A stretch of 64,000 nucleotides of DNA, the filler included, from Basidiobolus ranarum (lineage: Eukaryota), in the NCBI GenBank assembly GCA_040143965.1. It is 9 parts of 9 records of this genome, joined end to end, with 100 filler letters (N's around TTAATTAATTAA, not from the genome) between each part and the next. Parts side by side here need not be neighbours in the genome. Positions count along the whole stretch, not along the records: positions 35,906 to 42,963 come from JASJQH010008061.1; 8 more parts are not named here. The stretch is one strand, 5' to 3'. The notes below the pieces were generated by a model, which ran no database searches, had not been told where the DNA came from, and saw only the letters and a program-made list of their open reading frames with translations. The translations under genes and the position numbers were made by a program. Of this stretch, positions 23,700-54,500 are shown piece by piece (positions within the stretch are counted from its first letter, which is position 1; every line of letters starts with the position of its first letter).

Positions 23700-26545
23700 T
23701 GACAAAATTGTTCAAGGGATTTGAAAGTGTCTTGGTCAATAATGGATATGTGAATGAGACACTTGAGTTTTATTGGATTGAATATGTCCCATTTAGAGTT
23801 TACTATGAGATGCAACTATAGGACATGCTTAGATCTTAACAAACATGTCTGTCAAGCATGGGTGAAAACCTGAGGTTGTTTGGAAAAGTTTTGACAAAAT
23901 GGTGAAAACTGGTAAGAGTGATCTAATTAATATTTCTATCAGATAGGGCAATAAACATATGTTTTTGAATGGCAGAATTCAGTGCTAAATAATCAGAATA
24001 AGAATATACTAACTATTTAATAATGAGTTGCCATTTACCTATTTTCAATATTACCACTCAACTAATCATTTTGTATTTCTCTATCATTTCTTTAGTAGGG
24101 CAATAGACAAGTTCAATAATATCATTCTGTTTTGCTTCTCTAACAAAATGATGCTTAATATCTACAAGTTTTGTTCTAGCATGAAATGTTGGGTGTTTAG
24201 TAATGAAATACACTTTGATTATCCTTGAATACAGTAATAGCACATTTTTGCACATATTCTAAGTCTGTTAATAACTTCTTTAACTACATAGCTTCTTGCA
24301 TAGGAGCAGACACAGCCATATACTGAGCTTCTGTAGTGGACAGTGCCGCAGTTGGTTGCTCCTTACTTAACCAAGTTATGGCTTCATACCCATATAGAAG
24401 AGTGTGCCCAGTTGTTGATATTCTATCATCAAGGTTTCTTCTTTAGTGTGTATCACAGTTGCCTCCAAAATTATGTTGATCAGGAGTGGTGGAGTATTCT
24501 AGAATTAGATCTACAGTTCCTTTCAAATACCTAAATATTCCTCTTGCTGCAGTTTTGTGCTTAGATCCTGAATCTTTGAGATATTTGCTGAGAGTTCCCA
24601 CTGGTGCAGCAATGTCTGCATGTGATCCAACCATCATAGACATTAAACACCCACCATAGATTGAAAAGGAAACTCCTGGCTTTGATTTTAGTCATTATGG
24701 GCCCAATTGGATGAAACTATGATTATCTTCACATTGGGATTGATATTGCCACAGGCTTGCTATTCTCCACATTGAAGCATTTCAGGATATCTAGGATATA
24801 TCTAGATGTATTCAGCCTGATGTTTGGATTGGTTTTATCTCTTCTAATTTGGATTCAAAGAAAGTAACTTACATCAATTGTATCAGTCATCTGAAATTGG
24901 TATGATAAGCTACTTTTCATCTGATTAAGTGCTTCTAGATCATTTGTAGCTTTGATCAAGTCATCCACATGTAATGCTAAGATGAGGTTCTTATTTCTGG
25001 TTGTTTGATGTAAATACTGTGATTTGCCATGCATTTGTGGAATTCAAGTGAATCCAAATGGGTATCTATTTTATTGTACCATGCTCTGGGTGCTTGCTTG
25101 AGTCCATATATTGATGTATGCAGTTTAAAGACCATATCAGGATGTTTTGGGTCAACAAATCCATCTGGTTTCTCCATACAGATCACTTCTTCTGGGTTTC
25201 CATTCCAAAAGGTTGTTTTTACATTCAATTGTTTTTAATCAATGTTATGTATGGCTGTGAGTGCCAGCTTTGATTTAATGGAGCTGAACTTAGCCACTGA
25301 AGCCTGTATTTTATCAAAGTCAATGCCTGGAGTCTAGGTATACCCTTTTGCAACTAATCTTGCTTTGTACCTTTCTATGGCTCCATCAACTTGGTTCTTG
25401 ACCTTCTTGTTACATTTGCAGCTTATTGGCTTTCTTCCTGATGGTTGAGGATGTAAAACCTTATTTTTATAGTCTTGAATTGAAGAAAACTCATCAGATA
25501 TTACTTTTCCCATAATTGAGATTCTACATACTTGAGCGCTTGATCCAGAGTCTGTGGCTCATCACAGAATGCTGCATAAGCATGTACATCATCATTCAAA
25601 GTATTCCACCAGTTTGCTGGCTTTTCTCTGCTACTGTATACTCTTCTTGGTCCTGAATAATCCTCTGATACAGATGGGACTTGTTTTTCAGTTGAATAGG
25701 GTTCATAAGAAGCTAGATTTTTGTCAGACACTTCCTGAATAGTGCTGACTGCGTTTTCAGGATCCAGAACTGTGATTTGAGGTGAAAAGCTTGCTTTTTC
25801 ATCAAAAGTCACATACTGGCACCTAATTGTCTTCTGATTTTTGGCATCAAGCAGTTTGTAGGCCCTAGATGCATCATGGTAGCCAAGAAATATGCATTTT
25901 GGCTTTGAGGATCAAATTTAGAGCATTTTTGAGCTGGAATTAGGCAAAATGCTGTGCAACCAAGGATCCTGAGATGATACACTTGGTTTAGAACCATATA
26001 GGGCTTTAAATGGCATAGAAAATCTTAGCAATCTTTTTTGGCATCTAATTTTCATATAGACTGCAGTGGAGACAGATTCAGCCCAATATTGGTAATCTAT
26101 CTTTGGATCATATTACCTTGATCTAGCCATTGCCACTCTGATCTTATTAGCCTGATCTGCAACTCTATTTTACTATGGAGGTATGGTACATTAGATTGTT
26201 GCTTGATTCCATGTTTAGAACAAAAACTGGCAAAGTCATTAGAGTGTTATTGTCCACTATTATCACTCCATAGTACCCCTATCATTTGTGCTGATTCTTT
26301 AGGACCTTTTCCTGCCTATTAAGATGTTTTTATAAGCCCACATAGGTCAAAATGAATCAGGGCAAAATTCTGAGTTGATTTGATCTCTCCAGAGCTTTGA
26401 AACATCTGTCTGCAAAGTTTTGCTTATATGAAACCTTCACACAGATCCATTTAAAGAGAGTTTCAATATATAAGCCTGAAACAAGATTATTTGCAAACAT
26501 TTGTGAAAGTTTTTATTCCCCAACACAGCCAAATCTCTTGTTTCC
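23700..26545 (-). mobile_element. degenerate Ty1/copia element of the same family: integrase, RT, RNase H and complete 3' LTR (23700-24050); 5' part missing
   Basis: 'SIYGLKQAPRAWYNKID', 'FHARTKLVDIKHHFVRE', 'LRILGCTAF'. The LTR is colinear with 51564-51912 and 55731-56080. PPT-like tract at 24051-24061. Confidence 0.92.
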
Positions 26546-28741: not shown

Positions 28742-29486
28742 AAGCGGCAATTGGGCAATTAACCGAGTACCTTGGTCTTTAGGAGTTTCCAGCATATAGC
28801 CTTATGCTCACCAGGACCTTACGACCCTGGGGGCCCTACACTTGAGCTATTACATGCATTACCGCTAAAGCAGCTAATACAAAAGGTAATATAATATCTC
28901 TGATCATCTCATCTTTTAAGAACTATGCCGCCGAAAAGCTGCCGAAGGGTTTCGGTTGCCACTCGAATCAGTGATTAGCCTTTGAAATTGACTCTGATTC
29001 GTGCTCATGTGATCCTGATCCAACCTTAATCCCTCTTTTAGGAATATGAGTCTGACCATGGACATAAAATATCGCATCTAATTATCAACTATAACATGAG
29101 TAACATCAAACCAACTTAAAATCTTTCTACCTGCCTTCAGGAAACTTACTCTTCGGTCTACGAAGTTACTTTAGATATCGAGTCTTCTCCTTCGGTTTCA
29201 GCCAAGAACAATCACTTTTACTAGGTGTTTTCCGTTCTCTGAAGCTATTGCTTTAGCTCGTGACTTAATTGTAATTTTATGGTATGTTCTCCAAGAGTTT
29301 CTCCCACAATGTTTTTCTACCAATTCATACTTATACTTCCCTTATGGTTATTGAATTTCATTCGTTCTGTTCCATAGAATCACTGATTGCTACGTTCTGA
29401 ACTGGACAAATACTGTGTACTCTAGTCAATCCTTTCTTTCTTTGATATCGGTCGAATATTTATTTATATCCTGTCCCATCTCATAT

Positions 29487-31364
29487 ATGGCCGATCAACA
29501 ACCTTTTCCGTTTGCTTTCGAAGACCCATTGTTCTCGAAGGGTTCCAGTATGGCTGTGGACGATCTTCCCTTAATTGGTTCGCAAATACATCAAGATGCG
29601 TCTAGCGCTAGTCACAGCGCTAGCGAAGGACATGGCGCACAGAGACGCACCGATTCTCAGGTTTCCTTCCTTAACAAGGCTGAAGTGCTAGCCTCTGAGA
29701 ATACCCATTCCCCCAGAACGATAGATTCCTTCTCAGCAAATACGTCTGCAAGCCAAACACAAGAGACCCAAGCAACTTCAGATCCTTGGGGTATTTTGCA
29801 GTCTATTAATCCTGATTACGCTACCGTTTATTTAAGTAAAACTGATGGCAGAGGATACTTGTTGGGAAGACACAAAGAGTGCGACATTATATTTAATCAT
29901 CCACAAATCAGTAATAGACATTGCTTGATCTTCAAAGAAAACAGGGTCGACACCCAGACCGGACCAGTGGATTGTATTTTTATTGAGGATTTAAGTACCA
30001 ATGGGACTTACGTCAATGGCAAGAAAATTGGGCGTAATCAACGAAGACAGATACATCCGGGTGATTCCATTCAATTGGCACGCTATAATTCCAAGCTGCA
30101 TGAAAAGTTCAACGATAATTTTTACATCTTCAAGCAAGTCACACATGAAACAAATGAATTAGGGCTAACCATCAACAAGAAATATCTGATTGGTAACACA
30201 CTGGGACGAGGCAATTTTGCCGAGGTTAAATTGGCTACAGACAGAACGACAGGCAAACGATATGCGGTGAAGATAATTAACAAGCGGAGGTTTCTCAACA
30301 AGCCTAAGCTTACCGAATCCTTGCAGCGCGAGATCGCCATTCTAATGGCAATCAAGCACCCATGTATTATATCTACACACGGAGTCTATGACGAGGAGGA
30401 TTTTCTCTATATTGTCTTGGAGTTGGTGGATGGAGGAGAGCTGTTCGATCTTATTGTTAAAAAACGGCGGTTCACTGAGCCAGAGGCCAGAGTTGTCTTT
30501 TATCAACTTTTCCAAGCCATCAAGTATTTGCACGACCGTGGAATTACCCATCGTGACATGAAGCCTGAAAATATCCTTCTGGATCCTCGGGACCCGTTGC
30601 GCGTAAAGATATCTGACTTTGGTTTGGCCAAGATTGTTGGTGAAGATTCGTTTATTAAAACTTTATGCGGAACTCCAAACTATGTGGCTCCTGAGGTATT
30701 GCAACCTCCACAGTACCGGCAGTACTCGAAGAAAGTCGATCTATGGAGCCTGGGTGTGATATTGTATATCTGTTTGTGCGGATTCCCTCCCTTCTCTGGT
30801 AAGGTTACTGTAGCGGAATAGCCCATGATTATGATCTAACTCCACCTTGATGACAGATGAACTTGGCCCACCAAACATGCAGGCTCAGATCAGAGAGGGA
30901 ATCTATAATTTCCCTTCGCCATACTGGGATGATATATCTCCTGAAGGTTAGGACATCGCCATCCTCTGAATTTTATCTCGCATACTAAACACCATTAAAG
31001 CTATCAGTTTAGTTGAGAAGCTCTTACAAGTGAATCCGGAGAAGCGGCTGACTGTAGACGAAGCCTTGGAGCACCCATGGATGAAGGTAATCAAATAGTT
31101 TGATCTGCCTGCCTTTCAGTAACGTTGTTAATCTTCTATCTTCTCTCTTTTCATTTTAAGATGGAGAATCAGATGCATGAGGTTACGTCAACTGCTCCTT
31201 TCTTCCATTCCCTGAAGCAAGAATTCAACCGAGTTCACACAACGCTATCTCCTGAGAAAGTTCTAAACGAGCTACAGTCCGATGGTAACACTGCCGCGGT
31301 TCTCAAGCGCGAACCTGCAACACATCGTGCAGACTCACCTTCCAAACGCCCGAGAACTTCATAA
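29487..31364 (+). CDS. CHK2: checkpoint kinase Chk2/Cds1 (SQ/TQ cluster, FHA, Ser/Thr kinase); exons 29487-30798, 30857-30946, 31001-31086, 31161-31364
   Basis: 'SQTQETQ'; FHA motifs 'GRH', 'ISNRHC', 'DLSTNGTYVN'; kinase motifs 'LGRGNFAEV', 'AVKII', 'HRDMKPEN', 'DFG', 'TLCGTPNYVAPE', 'LCGFPPFSDE'. Three GT-AG introns. Confidence 0.93.
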
Positions 31365-35905: not shown

Positions 35906-36190
35906 TTCTTCACGGAAAGAGAGTGGTGTATCCATGGGCCTTGGAGCCATATTGGTTACGGAGAATCTACGACTCCCAAATTCTTTTGCGGCCGCGCAAG
36001 TGAAATCCTTCATCGGGGCCTTGGAGCCAGCATAGATGGAATAAAACCCTGTGAATGCCGCAAGCATGACGGTGAAGATGGTACTGATTTTTTCACTCTT
36101 ATTGAGTCGTTTACCTGCTTCTTGAATGAAGGAGTAGGCAGACTTAGAGATAATGTATATCATAACATCATCTTCTTCACTTTCCTCCAC
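35906..36190 (-). pseudogene. short-chain dehydrogenase/reductase fragment (PRK12744-like); N-terminal Rossmann half absent
   Basis: 'SKSAYSFIQEAGKRLN', YxxxK motif 'YAGSKAPMKDFTCAAAKEFGSR', 'APRPMDTP'. No TGxxxGxG segment upstream, where the DNA is AT-rich and non-coding up to the peroxiredoxin stop. Confidence 0.75.
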
Positions 36191-36429
36191 GCTGTCTCAA
36201 AATAATTATTGAACATTCCATACTTGGATTAAACATGACACACAGTTCCATTGCAATCAAGCATTACCATAATTTATTATCTGCTTACTACTTCGATAAC
36301 ATACAACTTACAATATGAATTCCATAAAAAAAGTTAAATAGACCCAAAGAGCTGAGTGAAAGATGCTGTTAGCATCAGTTTAATGACATTTATTAATGTA
36401 ATGTATACACAATATATATGCAAATCGAT

Positions 36430-36930
36430 CTAGACACCTAACTCTTCAATATCTTTGAGCATATGATTGGGACCAGAGATTCTGTAGCTTGATGGTCCAG
36501 GCTCTTCAATGTTGATAACTTTGACATCATCGACATACATACTGTATCGCAAGGATCTCACTCCTAACCCAGGCATTACCTGAGTCAATCCAATCTTTTC
36601 GTGGAATGAGCAGTCACCATTAGATATAACCTCAACTTTATCCATGATATCATAGTTTTGTGACCAAGCGTGCATTACAAATGGATCATTTACAGCGGTA
36701 CAGTAGATGGCATCGATACTTTTATCTTTGAATGAATTGTAGTAAAGCCCATATTCAGGAAGGTTTTTGTTGCTACATCCGGTGGTGAAGGCTCCTGGAA
36801 GATCAAAAAGAACAACTTTCTTGCCCGCGAACAAATCTTTAACGGAGAGAGTGCGCATTTCGGAGCCCTCTTCAGGGAGAGAGGTAAGATGCTCACTGTA
36901 TGGAATCTGACCACCTTTTTTGATAGTCAT
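36430..36930 (-). CDS. Prx5/AHP1-type peroxiredoxin, intronless, possibly decaying
   Basis: 'LFAGKKVVLF-LPGAFTTGCS' (PxxxTxxC intact), 'AVNDPFVMHAW', 'GLGVRSLRYSMYVDD'. Several usually conserved residues are altered. Confidence 0.88.
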   Translation of the reverse strand: MTIKKGGQIPYSEHLTSLPEEGSEMRTLSVKDLFAGKKVVLFDLPGAFTTGCSNKNLPEYGLYYNSFKDKSIDAIYCTAVNDPFVMHAWSQNYDIMDKVEVISNGDCSFHEKIGLTQVMPGLGVRSLRYSMYVDDVKVINIEEPGPSSYRISGPNHMLKDIEELGV

Positions 36931-38321
36931 GTTGAATACGGTTTCATTAGCGCTACGTGCCCTAATATTTCGAACATAATGATATCTTTAGTTATCTCAT
37001 TACAACATTAATAATGTTACAGTAGTCAATTGATTAATAGCCACATAACCCAGATCGTATTGCTTTCAAATTGTCACAGATGAATTACTAAATATACATC
37101 TTCACCTACATAATGCTCCCATGTATGTTGCTAAAATTGTTGTCCTAAAGTTTAGTCACCATGTGTTTCTGGAGATGTGGGCATTTGAATATCTATATTC
37201 TTGATTACGAGCTCCCTAGAAAAGCTATAGTTGTGAAGCTTGGTAAAAATTGGGGATTGATTTTGAGATATATGTGTAAAGAATATGAAAGTGATTGGGG
37301 CATTATCTTTTCTCCAAAAATGTCATCGCTTTTTGTTCGATAATCTAATTTCATAACATTTATACCAATCGAGTATCACCCATATCAAGAGGCCTTGAGT
37401 ATCTCTAAATCCCCCATAACTTTTGGAGCTCATTTCGAACTGTTGTAACTTTGTACAGCTTTGCTAATAGTGATGTTATACACAAAGTTGATAAAGCCAC
37501 TGGTTTAAATGTATGAATTAACGTGGTTTGTGCATAGATGGAAAGAAAGCATACTATTCATAGCTTATGTATTATCTCTGGCTAAGCATCTCACACTATC
37601 TAGATGGAACCAAAGTATTTCTTAATGGGAATCTGATGATACCTTAAGTTAATAACTATTACTGACAATCCCACTTGAAATAATACTAAATGGCATTGAT
37701 ATGAGCTTAAATACCGCTATAGCCCAACTTTCAAGAGGATGTTAGTGAAGGAACATTGTTAGTATAAACTGACTAGAGAAAGCACTAACCCTAAAGACCA
37801 AGGAAAGGTAGAAGTTAGATATACTGGCAGTGTGGTTTGGAGTCACTGATATTTTTGTTCAAAAAATTGCATCATACTGTATTTGGATATTGTATCATTC
37901 TTAGCATGTCAGAATAAAAAAATATTGATGGCCAATTCTGACTAGAGAAGAATTAAGAGCACAAGCACTAAAGCATCATCAACATAGACTCGACTATTTC
38001 TACATCATTTCCTGTTCTCTAGCAACCAAACTATGAGGTTATGGTACTTTAACTTAAATATCACTAACGACTTCTATTTAGTACAAAATTTAGCTCAAAT
38101 CGAGTAATTAAAAAATTTCTGCGGTGTTTCCAAAATATTCACGATTACAATCTCTGACATAAGTTATCATGATACCTGTATTCTTGTTCAACTCGTAAGT
38201 TCTCTATTTTGATGATCTATATATATCAATCACAATTATATTGAAATTGAGTCAAGTGTATATTTAGCAAAGTACAGGTTGAAAATCTGACAGAATATAT
38301 AGTAGAGTACAAGGAATAGTA

Positions 38322-38385
38322 GCTCTATGGTTCCAAAATCTTGTCAAAGTTGAAGAGGATGCAGGTTTAATTCCTGGCCAGAGCA
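38322..38385 (+). pseudogene. possible decayed tRNA-derived sequence
   Basis: GCTCT...AGAGC-A acceptor-like ends and a T-arm CAGG-TTTAATT-CCTG. Only 64 nt, with no recognisable D arm. Confidence 0.25.
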
Positions 38386-38765
38386 ATATTTATCCTTGCT
38401 CCCAACATTACCTAAGAAAATACACCAAAAATTAGGTTAATTCTATGGTACATTCTAAGCAAGCAAATCAACCTTGAACTCCATCATAATAACTAAATCT
38501 AAACTACATTGACAAAATTCTTAGCACAACTCAAAGTGATCAATCAAAATCGCTGTTGATAAAACTGAGTAACTAGTAGGTATCAGTGCTTCCTTGGGTA
38601 AGTTCTTGAATATGCTACCTCTGAGTATAGGGGCAGTCTATGTATCAAGTACCAAAATTTCTATAGCAAAATACAATTCTAGTTATTTATTTTCTGTCAG
38701 TTTAAATGTTTCGGCATTCACTCCAAGTAACTTGTACTAAGGATCACCACGCAATCCTGTAGCCT

Positions 38766-40247
38766 TTATTTTTGAAGTTTTCTTAATATCAGCTTAGTTC
38801 CATTTTTGGCTACCATAGCAAGACTATGCTCTTCTCGTTCAATATTGCGACATTTCTCTGATACTAGTACTTCGTATTTTTGAAGAATCATTGATATTAC
38901 TAAAGTGGCAGCATGTATAGCATAGCGCTGTCCCAAACAGCCGCGTACCCCTAGACCGAATGGGACAAAAGCCAAATGCTGGCCGTCAGAAGGAGCACCT
39001 TCTTTCTCTTGTGCGACTTTTTCTTTTTCTAGGAATCTATTAGGATCATATACCTCCGGATCAGTCCAGTATTTTGTATTTTTATGAATAGCAACCATAG
39101 GTATGACTATGGTGGTGTTTTTTGGTATGAAGTGACCACCAACATTCTGGTCTTGGTTGGTGACTCTCCAGGTAGCGATGGCGGTGGGTATGCACCTAAG
39201 GCTTTCTCTGATTGAAGCGCGAACGTATGAGAGCTGCGAAATATGACTAATTTCTGTTGGTGGTGTGTGTAGCCCACAGATTTTAATAATCTCCTCACGT
39301 GCTGTTGTTTGGCACTCCGGATTTATAGCCAAGTGCCACAGAGTGTTATTAAGTATAACGTCATTCTCAAACGTCCCGAACACAAATGTTAAGATCTCTT
39401 CTTGGATCTCTTGTTTAGTGAACACAGGAGACCCATCACTGTTCTTTGCAGAGAATAGAAGGCTCATCAGGTCTCCAGGTTTATCATGGATCTCTTCTCC
39501 GTGCTTACGCCTCTGTAGCTCTTTTGTTACTAGTTCATCCACCTCATGATGCACCTCACTTAGTAAGTGTCTCTTTTGACGCCATGTGGAAGAGAATGGA
39601 AAGATTCGGGTATATCTCAAATGGCCCAAGAATTTCAAGGTTATTTCCATTTTTTTGCCTAATGTTTGGTGCGAAGATGCCTCTCCAAAAACATTATAAT
39701 CATTCATCGACATCCATATTTGGTGAGTGTACGGCTCTAAAACGACCTCAAAAGAGCCATCATCCGAAATAGTACTAGATTTCTCCCAATCCAGAAAGGT
39801 GTTGGACACAATCTGCCGAAATTTTGGCATCAACTTCTCAAAAGGCTGTCTTGAGAATATTCCGTGTAGTAGACGACGTCTCTCTTTTGCTTCATCTCCC
39901 TTCAAGAAAGTTATTCCACCCATTAGCCCCTTCAAAAAATTCAGCCCTTCAACACGCTTATCTAATCTCAGCACTTTCATTTCACTCAATAGCTTTGGGT
40001 CATCTATAGACACGACTAACTCTCTACCATCCCAATACCGAGCTAAAGAGCCATATTTAGTATGCAAGTCAACTAAGAACTGGGCATACGAGCCAGCTGA
40101 GCAGATTGTAGCACGATTGTCAGTAAACAAACCGCATTCAGGTCCAGGTATGCGATTACCTATCTCACGTTGTCTTAAAAATGACCTTGCAATGTGCAGC
40201 AGTCCTGCTAATAAAAAAGTAATCACGAGAGTAATCCAAGTTTCCAT
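38766..40247 (-). CDS. cytochrome P450, intronless, 493 aa
   Basis: N-terminal membrane anchor and IPGP hinge, ExxR ('ESLR'), PERF-like 'DPNRF', haem motif 'PFGLGVRGCLG'. Atypical I-helix 'TFVFGTFENDVIL'. Confidence 0.96.
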   Translation of the reverse strand: METWITLVITFLLAGLLHIARSFLRQREIGNRIPGPECGLFTDNRATICSAGSYAQFLVDLHTKYGSLARYWDGRELVVSIDDPKLLSEMKVLRLDKRVEGLNFLKGLMGGITFLKGDEAKERRRLLHGIFSRQPFEKLMPKFRQIVSNTFLDWEKSSTISDDGSFEVVLEPYTHQIWMSMNDYNVFGEASSHQTLGKKMEITLKFLGHLRYTRIFPFSSTWRQKRHLLSEVHHEVDELVTKELQRRKHGEEIHDKPGDLMSLLFSAKNSDGSPVFTKQEIQEEILTFVFGTFENDVILNNTLWHLAINPECQTTAREEIIKICGLHTPPTEISHISQLSYVRASIRESLRCIPTAIATWRVTNQDQNVGGHFIPKNTTIVIPMVAIHKNTKYWTDPEVYDPNRFLEKEKVAQEKEGAPSDGQHLAFVPFGLGVRGCLGQRYAIHAATLVISMILQKYEVLVSEKCRNIEREEHSLAMVAKNGTKLILRKLQK

Positions 40248-42237
40248 GGAGGCTTACTGAATTTGGGGAAATAATATTATAAGTTGAAGGTTATTTACTC
40301 TAGTCGAAGTGGTACTTTGGGGCAGAACTAACCTAGAGGAGATAGTGGTAGATGGTTAGATGGAAGATACGATGGAATTCTAGTGGTAAGAGGGGATTAG
40401 TTGAATAGAAGAGACAAAAACATCCTATTTAACTGAGACAACACAATATAGGCATTGGATTTCAAGTCCATGTGGAAGATCCAGTGCTCATTTAATAAAA
40501 TTCTATTCACTGACGTCAACTACGAGCCGGCGGATCCAAATCTAAACTTGGAGTGACACTTATCCAACACCAGGCTTCTTGAAACCAAGGGTCACGATGG
40601 AGGTGTGGCAGCGGCAAGATTCACAAATGTGTAGGGGAACTAAAGGTAATGCAAGTAGAACTGTAGGGTTATCGATGGAATCTGCCTTGAACTACACCAT
40701 TCACGATGGAACTTTGGATTGTAGCTGTAGCAGCATTATCGAAGCCTCATTAAAGTCTGAATAGTATATTGTTAGTAAGTAGTGTGGCAGCGATGGGTGG
40801 ATATATAGCCAATAGCATAGATGTACACCCTAGACTGGCTTCTGTGAATGTGAAAACACAAGTCACGTTGATGTCTAGTATGATATTCAAGCTGGATTGG
40901 ATTTGTTCCATCAAATCACAATGATGACTAATATACGTGTTCCATCAGGCTAAGGGCTCTTGGATCTTGGCTCATAATATTGAATTAGCAAGCTTTGAGA
41001 TTCATTAAGTCAGAGTATGTTGAATGATTTTAATATGAGTTCTCTCATATATATAGTACTGTATATGGCACTATGTATCAAACCTGATATTATTATTATG
41101 ATGTATGGATATACTATAATAGAATCAGACAAGTATGCAGGGTTAGGGTTCACATTAAGCGAAGAATTCAGATACGAAATTACCATGCAATTATCTGAAA
41201 TTGACTTTAGGTAGGTGTATGTCTGGCGGATCAAATATGTGTTAATATACTCTTTCTGCTGGAGCACTTTGGTGCATGTATGAAATGAGGATGAGGAATT
41301 AGCTGGTGAAGAAGCTTTCTGCGAAAGTCAGCTAGTAGCAGAGACAAGTGATTTACGTTGTCTATACTTCGTGGTTGGAACGAAATGAACAGTGAAATTG
41401 CTTTGGGATAAATTAAGGATGTGTGTAATGAAGCCATTGCTGTTTGAAGTCGAAGCTATGGAAAAGAGGTTCAGAATAATGATCAATATATGCCTTTACA
41501 GTTTGAGAGATTTGGATGCCATTGCAAATATCTGGCAGTCTCCCAACACTTAGTATAAATTTCAGCAATATTGATTATGGTATCCCAAGCTCTACATATA
41601 AACTGAGCCATAAATTCATCTTGTCTAAGTTATGCATTGACTAGAGTAAATCGAGAACATCCACATAAATTATATTAGCATTCTTCAGCAAATTATTAAC
41701 CTATGTGCTTCATTGTACGTTTTATATGGCCAATATTTAGTCAAATGAGTTCAAAAGTACTTCTCCAGAGCGCAAGACAATTTTGATTATTCCCTATACT
41801 TTACATTGATGAAAGGTACTGTATTAATGACACTCAGTAGTGGTATACTTACTAATATGGCCTAAAGAAGTCCAGTGTAAGACCTGATCAATGAACTAGG
41901 ATTTTCATGAAACACTTATTGTCTAAACCGGCAAGCACGAGTTGAATGAGAATATATTTATTGGGTTGAAATTGAATTGAATTCCAAGATTCCCAAGCCC
42001 TAAATAAATGAACAAAAAAGTGGAGAGTAAACCACCAACCAAAGTTGAACCAAGAATAAATAGTGCTCTCATGATAATCCAGCCAAAGGGGAGGCACACA
42101 TATATATAAGTTCGTATTACTCGAAGCAATACTACGTACAGCATTGGTGAGGTATTGTGAAGTAGAGAATGCAAAGGAGAACACATATATTAAAGACCTG
42201 AAAATATACAAATAGCATTATATATGGATGCAGTACT

Positions 42238-42963
42238 TTAATTTCCTTTTTTTACTTTATCTACTAGGGAGATAATTGCGTCTTTCGTGCCCAGTACACA
42301 AGCGATGGCAGCTATAACGATGATGATGGAGCACCAGAGGAGCTCAAGTTTGTTCATGGAGCGGAGTCCATATAGTTTGAGGTATAGGACAATAGGTGCA
42401 ATAAAGATGATGATAGAATAAGCCAGTGCTCCGATGAGTGACATCAAATCATCCACATATGGAAGGAACATAGCAATCAAAGCCAGAACCACAATGATTG
42501 TAGTACGTAAGACAGCGCGAAGCATGAATTCCTTGGAAGCTGAGTGATATCTACGATCAATCCTTAACATACTCTCCATCTCATAAGCGAATCCAGTAAG
42601 GTATAGGGGAGCAGCAAGGATAACATGAGCCGTGATCATAATGATGGCTATGGTAGTAGGAGCACCATTAGGTAGACTTTTGTAAATCGGAGACTGCACG
42701 GTTCCTCCGTATACGTAGTAACCACACACCGAGATTAAAATGTACATTCCACAAATTGTCGCCATGGCCATTGTAAGGACTTTAGGCCATGCTTTTGGAT
42801 GAGCCATACCTGATTCAATGTGAGGATAAATGACATTACCACCGAACGAGAAGCAGATTGAAGCGAGAGCAATGGGCAGACCGGAGGAACTAATGAACTG
42901 GTGGGAGCCGGTAACATTATCAAGGCGACCATGGAGATCAACAAAACCTACAATAACTGAGAC
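42238..42963 (-). CDS. amino acid transporter, AAAP/Aa_trans family (Avt1-like), 5' truncated
   Basis: The frame is open from the contig end: 'ICFSFGGNVIYPHIESGMAHP', 'GYYVYG', 'PYVDDLMSLIGA'; multiple TM segments. Confidence 0.9.
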   Translation of the reverse strand, partial: VSVIVGFVDLHGRLDNVTGSHQFISSSGLPIALASICFSFGGNVIYPHIESGMAHPKAWPKVLTMAMATICGMYILISVCGYYVYGGTVQSPIYKSLPNGAPTTIAIIMITAHVILAAPLYLTGFAYEMESMLRIDRRYHSASKEFMLRAVLRTTIIVVLALIAMFLPYVDDLMSLIGALAYSIIIFIAPIVLYLKLYGLRSMNKLELLWCSIIIVIAAIACVLGTKDAIISLVDKVKKGN

Positions 42964-50212: not shown

Positions 50213-51563
50213 TGATAATAGTGGATGCATATCTTTAAGGATAGCGGCACGACCAGAGACAGCAGGGCAAGGTTGATTGGATGGAGAGTGAACTGTAAAT
50301 CAAGGATGGAAATCATAATTTGCATAGTCAGGAGTTTACTTTGTTGAGGTATATTAAGTTGTTGTATGCCAATTCAGCAAGAAGCAGCAGTTTTGTCCAA
50401 TTATCTTGATTATAGTTAATAGTGCATCGCAAATATTGCTCCAAAACTTGATTGACTCTTTCAATTTGGCCATCATATTGGGGATGGAAGGCAGTGGGGA
50501 GATTGGCAAACTGAGGTCCTTGGTCAGAGATGATAGTTTCAGGGAGTCCATGTAGGCAGAAGATATTTTGAGTTACCAATCCTGCTGTTTGTTGTGCATC
50601 AATTAACTTGTTGCAGGGCACAAAGTGGGCCATCTTTGTTAGATGGTCAACAATTACCAAAATTGAAAATATTTGGCAGACAAGGGAAGATCAGTTATGA
50701 AATCCAGGGATATGCATTTCCACAGCTGATCAGGAATTGGAAATGGCTGCAGGAGGTCATAGGACAGATGTCTTGGAGTCTTCACTAAAGCACAAACATC
50801 ACAGGTGCAAACATAATTCTTGATAAGTGCAAACATTTTAGGCTACCAATAATCCCTGGATGCCAGTATATATCATTTTGCAATACCAAAGTGTCCTGCA
50901 AGTGGTGAGTCATATCATTCCTGTGTGATTTAGAGTTTGTAATGTAAAATCACTGCTTATAGAATAAGAGATCATTGACAATAGAGAAAATGCAGTACAT
51001 GTGCAAGCTTGAGAGGCCTCTGGGTGTATCCTGGGCTTTCTTGATTGCTATTAACAATGGGTCTTCAGATTGGAGTTTGCAGATATCTTCATGGAATATG
51101 CTTGAAGTTGGCAGAGAAAGAGCAGTCACACTTTTTGAAGTTGGTGGGGCTTCAGTAAGGGAGTATTTTGTTGGCCAAAGGCCTTATCCCCTTCTTTAGG
51201 CTGATATTCTGTTCTACGTGATAAGGCATTAGTTTTTCCTTGCTGGCTACCTGGTCAATATGTAATCACATAATCTAAACTAGCAAGAAATAATGACCAT
51301 CTTACTCAAAGCTGGTTGAGCACTTTAGTTGTACTCAAATACTAAAGATTGTTATGATGACAATAGACTGTGATTGTGTGATTTGCACCATCTGAGTATT
51401 GTTGCCATTGTTCAAATGCTGCAATAATTGCTAACAGCTCCTTGTTATAGATGTCATAGTAGATGTCTGTTGCAGAGAACTTTCTTGAGTAAAATGCAAC
51501 ATGGTACAGTAAGTTATCATCATCACACTGTGATAGTACTGCTCCTTGAGCAAAGTCAGATGC
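50213..51563 (-). mobile_element. degenerate Tf2-like Ty3/gypsy element: RNase H C-terminal part and integrase
   Basis: 'ASDFAQGAVLSQ', 'AGHFG', 'YVCTCDVC', 'WKCISLDFITDLP', 'HGLPETIISDQGPQF', 'TAFHPQYDGQIERVNQVLEQYLRC'. Confidence 0.92.
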
Positions 51564-54500
51564 TGATAAAAGTGTTTAAGGGATTTGGAAGTGTTTTGGA
51601 CAAGGTTCAGATCTGTGTATTAGGTAGTTAAGTTTTATTAGAATGAGTCCTATATATAGTTTGCTATGAAATAGGACTATCAGAGGTGCTTAAAAAAATA
51701 ACAAACTTGCCTGTTAAGAATGGGTGAAAATTTGAGGTGATTTGGAGAGGCTTTGAGAAAATGGTGATAATTGGGAAAAGTGATCTAATTGCTATTTCTA
51801 TCAATTAGAGCAATAAACCAACATTTTTGTATAGTAGAATTAAGTGCTAAACAATCAGAATATGAATAAGCTAACTACTGAATAATGAGTTGCTATTTAC
51901 CTTTTTTCAACATTCCCACTTAACTAATGATTTTGTATTTCACTTAAACCTAATTTATATCTTAACAATTCAAATTATGCTTGGCTAAAGGTTTAGTAAA
52001 GATGTTAGTAATCATTTCTTCAGTAGGGCAATATACAAGTTCAGTTGTATCATTCTCTATTGCTTCTTTAACAGAATGATGCCTAATATCTATATGTTTA
52101 GTTCCAGCATTAAATGTAGGGTTGTGAGGTAAGCAAATGCAATTGATCTTCTTAAATACAGTAACAGCATGTTTTTGCATGAATCCTAAGTCTGTAAATA
52201 AGTTCCTTAACCACATGGCTTCTTGCAAAGTAGCAGAAGCAGCCTTATACTCTGCTTCTGTAGTGGAAAGTGCTATGATTGGTAGCTTCTTACTATTCCA
52301 AGTTATGGCTAAGAATCCTATTTCCGGTTGTTTTGATGTAAATACTGTGTTCTGCTGTGCATTTTATGTTTTCCAGTGATTCCAAATAGGTTTCTATGTT
52401 GTTGTATCATGCACTCGGTGCATGTTGGAGTCCATATAGCAATGTTTGCAATGTACAGGCCTACCAGGGTGTTTTGGGTCAACAAATCCATCTAATTGCT
52501 CCATATAGATCTCTTTGTCTAGATTTCCATTCAGAAATGCTTTTTTGCATCCATTTGAGGTAAATCAAGGTTATGAATGGCTGAGAGTGCCAGGATAGAG
52601 CTAATGGTGCTAAACAGAGCTACAAGAGTGAAGGTATCATTAAAATCAACTCACCAAGTCTGGGAATAACCTTTTGTAACTAATCTTCTTTGTACCTCTC
52701 CATGGTTCCATGAGCTTGGTGTTTGACTTTGTAGACCCATTTGTGATATATTGGCTTTCTCACTGATGGTAGAGGACTTATATCCCACATTTTATTGTCA
52801 TGAAGTGAAGAAAACTCATCTGACATTGCTTTTTCTCATAATATTGATTCTGGACACTCCAGAGCTTGAACTAAAGTCTGTGGATTGTCACAGAATGCTG
52901 CATAAGCACATACATCATCATTGGAAGTTTTCTACCAGTTTCCTGTCTTTTTTCACCGTGTGGATGATCTTCTGAGTCCTGAATCATCCTCTGATAAAAT
53001 TGGTACTGGTATTTTGTTTGCATAGGGCTCAGATACAGCTGGAATTTTGTCAGCTACTTCCTGAATAGTGCTGATTGTGTTTTCTGGATAACAAACTGTG
53101 ATTTGAGGTGAGTTATCTGCTTTTTCATCAAAAACAATATCTCTGTACTTAATTAACTTCTGATTTTTGGTATCAAACATTCTGTTGGCCTTAGATCCAT
53201 CACAGTAACCAAGAAATATGCATTTTCTGCTTTTGGGTTCTAGCTTAGAGCATTTTGAGCAGGAATTAGGCAATATGCTATGCAACCAAAGATCCTGAGA
53301 GGATCCACAATTGGTTTTGATCCATATAGGGCTTCAAATGGAGTAGAATTTCATAGCACTCTTGTTGGGCATCTGTTTTTGATATTGACTGTAGTGGAGA
53401 TAGAGTCAACCCAATTTTAATAATCAAACTTTTGTTCATGTAACATTGCTCTTGCCATCTCCACCATAGTCCTAATACAAATGGGACCAAAATTTGGGTC
53501 AAATTGGACTCAGATACAGCTGGAATTCTGACAGACACTTCCTGAATGGTGCTGATTGTGTTTTCTGGTTGAAGAACTGTGATTTGAAATGAAAAATTTG
53601 CTTTGTGATCAAAACTCACCTCTCTGCACTTAGTTTACTTCTGATTTGGGCATCAAACACTCTATAGGGCTTAGCTCCATCACAGTAACCAAGAAATAGG
53701 CATTTTCTGCTCTTTGGTTCCAATTTAGAGTAGTTTTGAGTGTGAATTATGCAATATGCTATGCAACCAAAAATGTTGAGATAATCCACATTTGGTTTTG
53801 ATCCATATAGTGCCTCAAATGGAGTAGAATTTTGTAGCAGTCTTATTGGGCATCTGTTTTTGCTATAGACTGCAGTGGAGACAGATTCAGCCCAATATTG
53901 ATAATCTAACTTTTGAACATGTAACATTGATCTTGCCATCTCCAGTATGGTCCTATTGCCATGTTCTGCAACTTGATTTTGCTGTGTAGTATAAGGTATA
54001 GTTGTTTGCTGCTTAATTCCATGTTAGGAGTAAAAACTAGCAAAGTCTTTAGGGCAGTATTATCCACCATTAGCACTCATTAGTACTCTTATTTTTTGTG
54101 CTGATTCTTTCTCTGCCATTGCTTTGTAGTGCTTGAGCATAACTAAGGTCTCAGATTTTGATTTGAGAATCAATACCCAAGTATATGGTGTTTTGTCATC
54201 AATAATGATCATAATGAACCTGTTACCACCTAGTAATTGTTTTTCATGAGCCCGCATAGATCAGAATAGATCAGGGTAAAATTTTGAGGGGTCTTAATCT
54301 CTTCAGAGCTTGAAAGTGACTGTCTTTGATGTTTTCCATGTATGCCACCTTCACACAGATCCAATATAGTGATATTTTCAATTTTTAAGCCTGTAACAAG
54401 CTGATTTCAGATCATTTGGGTCTGTTTTTGTTCCCCAATGTGGCCTAATCTTTTATGCCACAGTTGACAGCTTATTTTACTATTTTGTCCAACTTTGCAT

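Follow-up and report, generated by a model that had tools for sequence, protein, structure and literature searches.

We report a cytochrome P450 gene of the fungus Basidiobolus ranarum whose product, P0001, is an intact P450 with all core motifs and a confident P450 fold, in which an asparagine takes the place of the I-helix threonine beside a retained acid. The gene lies in a window of 64,000 nucleotides (nt), which is the whole stretch of DNA that was analysed and consists of nine B. ranarum parts joined end to end. Parts that adjoin in the window are not necessarily neighbours in the genome, and the part that carries the P450 gene (positions 35,906-42,963) comes from JASJQH010008061.1. The asparagine is shared by a family of fungal, alveolate and environmental sequences, hereafter called the Asn family. 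Judged by its sequences, this small and patchily distributed eukaryotic family branches separately within a larger group, to which bacterial (mainly cyanobacterial) P450s and the CYP20 family also belong and which is marked by a shared N-terminal signature. P0001 is best described as a distant clan-level relative of CYP20 and not as a CYP20.

Core motifs and modelled structure

The initial annotation of this gene had described a P450 that lacks the I-helix threonine and has the ExxR motif and the haem cysteine intact. The open reading frame (ORF) bears this out: the Pfam p450 family (PF00067) matches residues 51-481 with 201.7 bits (cut-off 22.8) and an E-value of 2.6e-59, and the strings quoted in that annotation were located in the translation (Table 1). 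In the oxygen groove of the I-helix the residues G291-T292-F293-E294-N295 align with (A/G)Gx(D/E)T, and the acid-threonine pair is not present. Because the HMMER alignment with CYP3A4 and a MAFFT alignment of 51 P450s agree, we assign E294 as the retained acid and N295 (codon at nt 39363-39365) as the replacement of the threonine. One residue is deleted directly after N295. The acid-alcohol pair is common in the P450 superfamily, but it is not obligatory.

Residues E348, R351, P402, F430, G433 and C437 are invariant in the 51 aligned P450s, and R404 is nearly so. The haem loop follows the canonical pattern FxxGxRxCxG, including the arginine, without insertion or deletion relative to ordinary P450s. 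Structure prediction, which had been proposed as a check, gave an AlphaFold2 model (computed with an alignment) that has the P450 fold, with a mean predicted local distance difference test (pLDDT) score of 92.9 and a predicted TM-score (pTM) of 0.92. In this model a helix spans residues 2-30, and according to DSSP the I-helix is broken at residues 292-295. The N-terminal helix is likely a membrane anchor, judging by its sequence, and we propose that it is anchored in the endoplasmic reticulum (ER). The nearest solved folds found by Foldseek are CYP4B1 (TM 0.82) and P450 BM3 and CYP3A4/5/7 (TM 0.74-0.79), and the best solved match by sequence is CYP3A4 (HMMER, E 1.4e-35). Although CYP3A4, CYP4B1 and P450 BM3 are the best sequence or fold matches among solved structures, they share only about 20-23% identity with P0001. 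They also keep the canonical acid-threonine pair, unlike P0001, and the N-terminal region of P0001 scores at most 17.5 bits against P450s of this kind.

The Asn-type family

Among 1.84 billion cluster representatives, searched exhaustively with HMMER, there were 35,347 P450 matches at an E-value of at most 0.001, but only 67 at or below 1e-30. The closest representatives to P0001 are from Chromera velia (P0022, 8.9e-77) and Paraglomus brasilianum (P0023, 8.5e-73), and three environmental clusters (P0035, P0056 and P0063) are also among the closest. The Asn family consists of sequences from Basidiobolus (including B. meristosporus), Paraglomus brasilianum, the alveolate Chromera velia and uncultured eukaryotes. 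Some of the environmental sequences are broken off or have odd inserts, apparently in the manner of unspliced eukaryotic gene models. P0001 and the 498-residue P450 of B. meristosporus, which is already annotated generically as “cytochrome P450”, align end to end with 64% identity and 99% cover.

All six members that cover the I-helix (P0001, P0002, P0022, P0023, P0063 and P0177) have the pattern [G/A/V]-x-[F/T]-[D/E]-N together with the same one-residue deletion. Since the asparagine occurs in six of six family sequences, it is a character of the family and not a lesion of P0001 alone. Other blocks conserved in the family are GLNFL.GL, LPFSS.WR, TWRVT and LAF.PFG.G.R.CLGQR. Among the papers listed in our literature searches we found nothing on the Asn family, on its [DE]-N I-helix or on a tie of its signature to cyanobacterial P450s and CYP20, although the family may already carry a CYP number. 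Relatives of CYP20 in fungi, cyanobacteria or protists were likewise not treated in the papers listed, nor were the P450 families of Basidiobolus.

N-terminal likeness to CYP20

The initial annotation had put forward a likeness of the first segment to CYP20A1, which we compared with CYP20 sequences from the searches in place of the string given there. These sequences were picked from the matches by the published haem-loop motif, which gave P0158 and P0143; both rank within the top 150 representatives for P0001 (E 2.4e-26 and 8.4e-27, respectively). A search with P0158, which confirmed them as CYP20, returned 298 relatives, and the best 120 of these 298 were used as the CYP20 set. Many of the 120 are named cytochrome P450 20A1 and come from cnidarians, echinoderms, molluscs, amphioxus and sponges, and one Balamuthia record is named CYP20A.

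Residues 28-130 of P0001 reach at least 25 bits against 96 of the 120 CYP20 proteins (median 30.7, maximum 44.1), whereas none of 78 further single-domain P450s does so (median of 1.4 and maximum of 17.5), although these 78 are the best whole-protein matches. The same threshold is reached with five of six bacterial relatives. The N-terminal likeness to CYP20 that the initial annotation had pointed out is therefore specific and far beyond chance. P0001 fits the CYP20 signature GNL.DI..AGSLH.FL..LH..YG....FWWG..L.VS, and the consensus over CYP20, the bacterial relatives and P0001 reads IPG..(G)N...I..AG(S/G)...FL..LH..YG....(F/Y)W.G..L.VS.

Over residues 270-470 the order is reversed, with a median of 65 bits for CYP20 and 82 bits for the other P450s. 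In their best single domain (residues 4 to 463) the top CYP20 proteins score about 115-125 bits, which is level with the best representatives outside the family and with CYP3A4. BLASTP aligns P0001 with an oyster CYP20A1-like protein at 28% identity over 474 columns (E 7e-41), and a second BLASTP comparison gave 26%. A word-indexed search with residues 28-130 alone returned two matches from 36 candidates, which were the query and its Basidiobolus orthologue only, so that CYP20A1 was not retrieved by it. An Atlas structure search with the same residues listed a cluster named “cytochrome P450 20A1-like”, with a TM of 0.84 by query, which we take as a lead only and do not use as evidence; the Atlas feature searches gave generic P450 clusters only.

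Phylogenetic position

The phylogenetic tree comprised 71 proteins, namely P0001, 41 representatives out of the 149 listed, 13 additional CYP20 proteins and 16 others including the Basidiobolus orthologue. Predictions longer than about 620 residues, fragments except P0063 and many redundant single-domain rows were left out. The main tree was calculated over 504 columns with the model LG+C20 and posterior mean site frequencies (PMSF). In this tree the Asn family is monophyletic with full support (100/100), and the 15 CYP20 rows, the Balamuthia sequence included, form a clade of their own that excludes the Asn family (100/100). The Asn family groups with the bacterial P450s P0033, P0034, P0053, P0052 and P0101 (98/88), while CYP20 groups with P0074 from Okeania (100/98). 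These 26 rows, i.e. the Asn family, its bacterial cousins, P0074 and CYP20, are joined at 100/98. Outside the clade are the clan 3/4 rows (among them Nematostella CYP3A29, CYP4F, CYP4C and CYP4G), plant CYP734-type P450s, a chytrid P450 and the clan 2 outgroups. A quick tree agreed with the LG+C20 tree.

Approximately unbiased (AU) tests were based on fast constrained searches in IQ-TREE under LG+G4, which makes them weaker than tests under the mixture model. Placement of the Asn family beside the clan 3/4 rows was rejected (p=0.0036), as was its placement with another bacterial group (p=0.012), whereas an exclusive pairing of the Asn family with CYP20 was not rejected (p=0.072). A phylogeny had also been suggested as a check on membership in a known fungal CYP family. 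No populated fungal family turned up near the Asn family, and the nearest fungal proteins outside it are much weaker matches or, like the chytrid P0140, lie outside the clade; on the full alignment the protein instead falls into the supported clade with CYP20.

A further tree was calculated after dropping the 144 columns up to residue 130 (70 rows, 360 columns, LG+G4, 1000 ultrafast bootstraps). Several results weigh against the placement given above. Without the N-terminal 130 residues the 26-row clade vanishes, although the Asn family itself still receives 100/100. Support for the Asn family with its bacterial cousins falls to 54.6/58, and CYP20 with Okeania (91.7/85) shifts next to the clan 3/4 rows (93.1/75). 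Moreover, the taxon sampling is limited to 41 of the 149 listed representatives and contains no vertebrate CYP20A1. Constraining the 26-row clade on the shortened alignment costs 46 log-likelihood units, yet the clade is not rejected (AU p=0.080), and a fast tree calculated earlier from the same columns joined the Asn family to CYP20 and Okeania with an SH-like approximate likelihood ratio test (SH-aLRT) value of 75.2, with a long actinobacterial row attached. Since the clade is lost once the first 130 or so residues are removed, its signal sits in this region. The clan-level link is thus a genuine sequence signal, but most of it comes from the N-terminal quarter of P0001.

Comparison with CYP20 and bacterial relatives

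P0001 and CYP20 resemble each other in the N-terminal signature, which extends from the IPG hinge into the first β-strands, in their length of about 470-490 residues and in the hydrophobic segment at the N-terminus. Both also depart from the (A/G)Gx(D/E)T(T/S) consensus of the I-helix, and both await a functional assignment. The usual threshold for membership in a CYP family is about 40% identity to named members, and P0001 falls below it, with 20-26% identity to the ten CYP20 rows of the alignment. The atypical I-helix, which had been proposed as a common feature, is of a different kind in the two groups. In CYP20 the motif is GGFHT[TS] ([GS]FHT[TS] in ten of ten rows), so that the threonine is kept and the acid is replaced by histidine, whereas the TFEN of P0001 retains the acid and has lost the threonine. 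The haem loop of CYP20, FGFAGKRKCPG, has an extra residue and a KRKCPG core, while the loop of P0001 is the canonical FGLGVRGCLG. In the literature, which we cite by PMC numbers here and below from excerpts of the articles, the CYP20 haem loop is given as FGFAGKRKCPG in Hydra, F-AGKRKCPG in Aurelia and PFGFGKRKCLG in Capitella (PMC8110760, PMC4229089). The CYP20 I-helix has been called “degenerate” (PMC8110760), and that of Capitella reads AGFHTT (PMC4229089). We therefore rejected membership of P0001 in the CYP20 family on the basis of the low identity, the position outside the 100/100 CYP20 clade and the lack of the I-helix and haem loop of CYP20.

The bacterial relatives P0033, P0034, P0053, P0052 (Anabaena sp. 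PCC 7108) and P0101 are the nearest sister group of the Asn family, carry the same N-terminal signature and are its best full-length single-domain matches outside the family (138-160 bits). They differ from P0001 in their low identity (24-27%) and in an I-helix of normal length, which has threonine or alanine, and never asparagine, at the position of N295. Further loci (L001, L002 and L015) were obtained from a scan of genome contigs with an alignment of these cousins: the Leptolyngbya locus L001 shares 71% identity with P0033, the identity of a Floridaenema locus is 39%, and L015, from a metagenome-assembled genome of the Cellvibrionaceae, is 100% identical to P0101. At positions 23-5093 of L001 (Leptolyngbya sp. 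Heron Island J) a partial P450, an ORF without a Pfam match, the cousin P450 and an O-methyltransferase follow each other on one strand, and this row looks like a small tailoring cluster. The neighbourhood of L002 includes a penicillin-amidase-like gene, and at both of these loci the genes around the P450 are bacterial.

The P450 of Okeania sp. SIO2C9, P0074, shares the I-helix AGFHTT with invertebrate CYP20A1 and branches as the sister of the entire CYP20 family (100/98; 91.7/85 without the N-terminus), so that it may offer a bacterial handle on the human orphan CYP20A1. At the base of the CYP20 clade are P0261 and P0297, which represent a record of the amoebozoan Balamuthia mandrillaris named “Cytochrome P450, family 20, subfamily A” and metagenomic “family 20 subfamily A” proteins. 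On account of these basal rows CYP20 may not be confined to animals. Two arthropod predictions, P0092 of Strigamia maritima (895 residues) and P0083 of Lamprigera yunnana (960 residues), each contain two tandem P450 domains with CYP20-like haem loops, G(Y/F)AGKRQCPG in P0092 and GLGKRKCLG in P0083; these may be tandem genes that were merged by gene prediction.

How is the resemblance to CYP20 to be explained? The gene could be a true CYP20 descendant that has since diverged, either as a relict opisthokont orthologue of animal CYP20A1 or as a gene acquired from an animal. Basidiobolus and Paraglomus are opisthokonts, the N-terminal signature is common to most of the CYP20 set, the oyster protein aligns over nearly the full length, and an exclusive clade of the Asn family and CYP20 was not rejected by the AU test. 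Nevertheless, we regard this explanation as very unlikely, given that the CYP20 clade excludes the Asn family with full support, that bacterial P450s come between the two in the best tree, that identity is 20-28% and both GGFHT[TS] and FGFAGKRKCPG are absent (PMC8110760, PMC4229089), and that the Asn family is also present in the alveolate Chromera. Because bacterial P450s interleave between the Asn family and CYP20, a simple relict opisthokont history, as put forward in the initial annotation, is disfavoured. A recent transfer from an animal host is excluded because the Asn family is not nested in animal CYP20. What stands of the proposed CYP20-clan relationship is the joint clade in the full alignment; membership in the CYP20 family does not stand, and the clade depends on the N-terminal 130 residues.

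Conversely, the link to CYP20 might be an artefact, with an N-terminal likeness that is convergent or recombined and a catalytic core that belongs to clan 3/4-type or other P450s. The loss of the joint clade without the N-terminus, the lower scores of residues 270-470 against CYP20 than against other P450s, and CYP3A4 as the best solved match by sequence would all agree with this. However, convergence can hardly account for a signature that bacterial, animal and fungal members all carry, and the C-terminal data leave the clade unrejected, with the earlier fast tree even joining the Asn family to CYP20 and Okeania. The low C-terminal scores of CYP20 also fit its own derived I-helix and haem loop, and with all columns included a placement with clan 3/4 was rejected. 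An artefact of this kind therefore seems improbable to us. We favour the Asn family as a separate branch of the wider group, within which the bacterial P450s are its closest relatives.

Possible chemistry

The initial annotation had noted that P450s lacking the threonine often act as isomerases, peroxygenases or hydroperoxide lyases, and had inferred a non-standard chemistry. To conclude from the missing threonine to such an enzyme is too strong, because asparagine replaces the I-helix threonine in P450s that use O2, namely P450cin (CYP176A1), OxyB homologues and RufM (PMC13439498, PMC10465960). Restoring the threonine in RufM and P450cin nearly abolishes activity (PMC13439498), and mutagenesis of P450cin indicated that a hydrogen-bonding residue is dispensable at this site (PMC10465960). 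With asparagine at the threonine position of A/GGxD/ET, these enzymes may serve as a working model for O2 activation by P0001. They differ from it in being soluble bacterial proteins that have no special sequence relationship to P0001 and are absent from its top matches, and their substrates (cineole, peptides) are uninformative for P0001.

By analogy with these enzymes we hypothesize, with slightly better than even confidence, that P0001 is an O2- and reductase-dependent oxidase with an asparagine-modified site for proton delivery or substrate positioning. P0001 would activate O2 in dependence on NADPH-P450 reductase, and the carboxamide of the asparagine, like its counterpart in P450cin, OxyB and RufM, would take over the hydrogen bonding of the threonine or help to position the substrate. 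This substrate would probably be lipophilic and endogenous. We favour the O2-dependent reading because the acid is kept in all members, the haem loop is canonical and the protein has a putative N-terminal anchor followed by a proline-rich hinge, and also because the closest solved proteins are reductase-dependent mono-oxygenases and asparagine is found in working O2-dependent P450s. Some features speak against it. The one-residue deletion and the modelled break of the I-helix at residues 292-295 are left unexplained. Three of the five bacterial cousins also lack the I-helix threonine and have alanine instead, so that the wider group may be prone to unusual oxygen chemistry. Furthermore, PGIS (Asn287), plant AOS (Asn321) and fungal LDS/EAS, all of which cleave peroxides, are likewise marked by an asparagine at the distal axial position (PMC13049297).

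These last enzymes are the basis for a different proposal, which follows the chemistry suggested in the initial annotation and in which P0001 is a self-sufficient peroxide-transforming P450 in the manner of PGIS, the CYP74 enzymes AOS and HPL, or fungal LDS/EAS, and N295 promotes O-O scission of a lipid hydroperoxide or endoperoxide without reductase or O2. In PGIS (CYP8A1), AOS (CYP74A) and LDS/EAS the asparagine is located over the haem iron at the equivalent I-helix position in substrate recognition site 4 (SRS4) (PMC13049297), and N295 occupies this catalytic threonine position. The asparagine is found in six of six family sequences, and the additional deletion and the modelled helix break also count in favour of this proposal; the peroxiredoxin-like ORF 1.8 kb downstream of the P450 gene is a weak and possibly incidental further point. 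The distal asparagine may assist peroxide O-O scission, but it is dispensable in several such enzymes (PMC13049297). The peroxide-cleaving P450s lack the adjacent acid, having glycine (PGIS) or phenylalanine (AOS) there (PMC13049297), whereas the Asn family keeps the acid in six of six members. The haem loop of P0001 is canonical in length and sequence, and PGIS, AOS and TXS are absent from the 60 best sequence matches and from the Foldseek matches listed. While the fungal peroxide-cleaving enzymes are fused to a dioxygenase, the P450 gene is unfused, and no lipoxygenase or haem-dioxygenase domain was found in 17 ORFs of at least 110 residues scanned between 24 and 54 kb of the window. We consider peroxide cleavage by P0001 to be fairly unlikely on these grounds and retain the O2-dependent oxidase as the preferred function.

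Outside the discussion of the Asn family, the representative P0138 has the I-helix AGHGNT, with Gly-Asn at the position of the acid-threonine pair, which is the pattern quoted for PGIS (PMC13049297).

A bolder combination of both questions would unite the Asn family, the cyanobacterial P450s and CYP20 in one ancient clan, within which the fungal and alveolate branch changed the pair to [DE]-N and acquired the deletion for a non-hydroxylating chemistry of the lipid-peroxide type, making it a eukaryotic oxylipin-type enzyme. This is unlikely in our view. If it were true, the human orphan CYP20A1 would gain its first tractable non-animal relatives, both fungal and cyanobacterial, among them the Okeania P450 with its AGFHTT motif. 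CYP20A1 belongs to the few remaining human P450s for which no substrate is known. The N-terminal signature of CYP20 is wider and older than animals, as it occurs in cyanobacterial P450s, two early-diverging fungi and Chromera. The most useful by-product of this analysis is that CYP20A1 has bacterial and fungal relatives, which offer comparative handles on this orphan and, being microbial, could be expressed. In addition, the conserved acid-asparagine pair adds a eukaryotic and probably ER-anchored case to the few P450s that lack the catalytic threonine. In practical terms the finding is of moderate weight, and the link to the clan depends for the most part on some 130 residues.

Gene and genomic surroundings

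The P450 ORF is contained in a stop-to-stop frame on the minus strand (38766..40253). Its first ATG is at 40247-40245 and its stop codon at 38768-38766, and an in-frame stop lies two codons upstream of the ATG. Because the frame of 493 residues is uninterrupted, no intron is needed. The features of the gene and of its surroundings are listed in Table 1.

Table 1. Positions in the window of the P450 gene, the motifs of its product and nearby features
Feature	Position	Strand	Residues of P0001	Basis or remark
P450 coding sequence (P0001)	38766..40247	-	493 residues + stop	intronless
Hydrophobic N-terminal helix ETWITLVITFLLAGLLHIARSF	40179..40244	-	2-23	sequence; followed by an IPGP hinge at residue 33
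N-terminal signature, starting with IPGPECGLFTDNRATICSAGSYAQFLVDLHTKYGSLARYWDGRELVVS	39993..40151	-	33-85	alignment and bit-score contrast; IPGPECGLFTDNRATICSAGSYAQFLVDLHTKYGSLARYWDGRELVVS at residue 33
I-helix oxygen-groove motif FVFGTFENDVIL	39351..39386	-	288-299	HMMER against CYP3A4; 51-sequence alignment
K-helix ExxR, ESLR	39195..39206	-	348-351	alignment
Meander motif DPNRF (PERF type)	39033..39047	-	401-405	alignment
Haem-binding loop FGLGVRGCLG	38931..38960	-	430-439	alignment; ligand Cys437 at nt 38937-38939
Peroxiredoxin-like ORF	36430..36987	-		Redoxin E 7e-17, AhpC/TSA
Long exon with FHA and Pkinase domains	29355..30821	+		FHA 2.1e-19, Pkinase E 1.2e-66
Retroelement polyprotein fragment	25501..25911	-
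Retroelement polyprotein fragment	50328..50690	-
Retroelement polyprotein fragment	52953..54023	-

The GC content of the P450 gene is 0.416, compared to 0.431 in the neighbouring kinase exon, and its composition is unremarkable. The flanking ORFs are ordinary eukaryotic genes and pieces of retroelements. Together with the similar GC content, these eukaryotic flanks place the P450 gene in a fungal chromosome and argue against a contaminant. No second copy of the gene was found within the 64-kb window. The scanned ORFs between 24 and 54 kb include an FHA-kinase, an SDR fragment, the peroxiredoxin-like ORF, an amino-acid transporter, PX and PAP2 proteins and retroelement pieces. An oxylipin gene cluster, with a dioxygenase or lipoxygenase partner, was considered and found no support among them.

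The peroxiredoxin-like ORF is on the same strand as the P450 gene, about 1.8 kb downstream of it, and its proximity may be incidental. In the long exon on the plus strand the FHA domain precedes the kinase domain, which is the domain order of checkpoint kinases. The retroelement polyprotein fragments are spread over several frames and contain a retroviral polymerase SH3-like domain and an integrase core.

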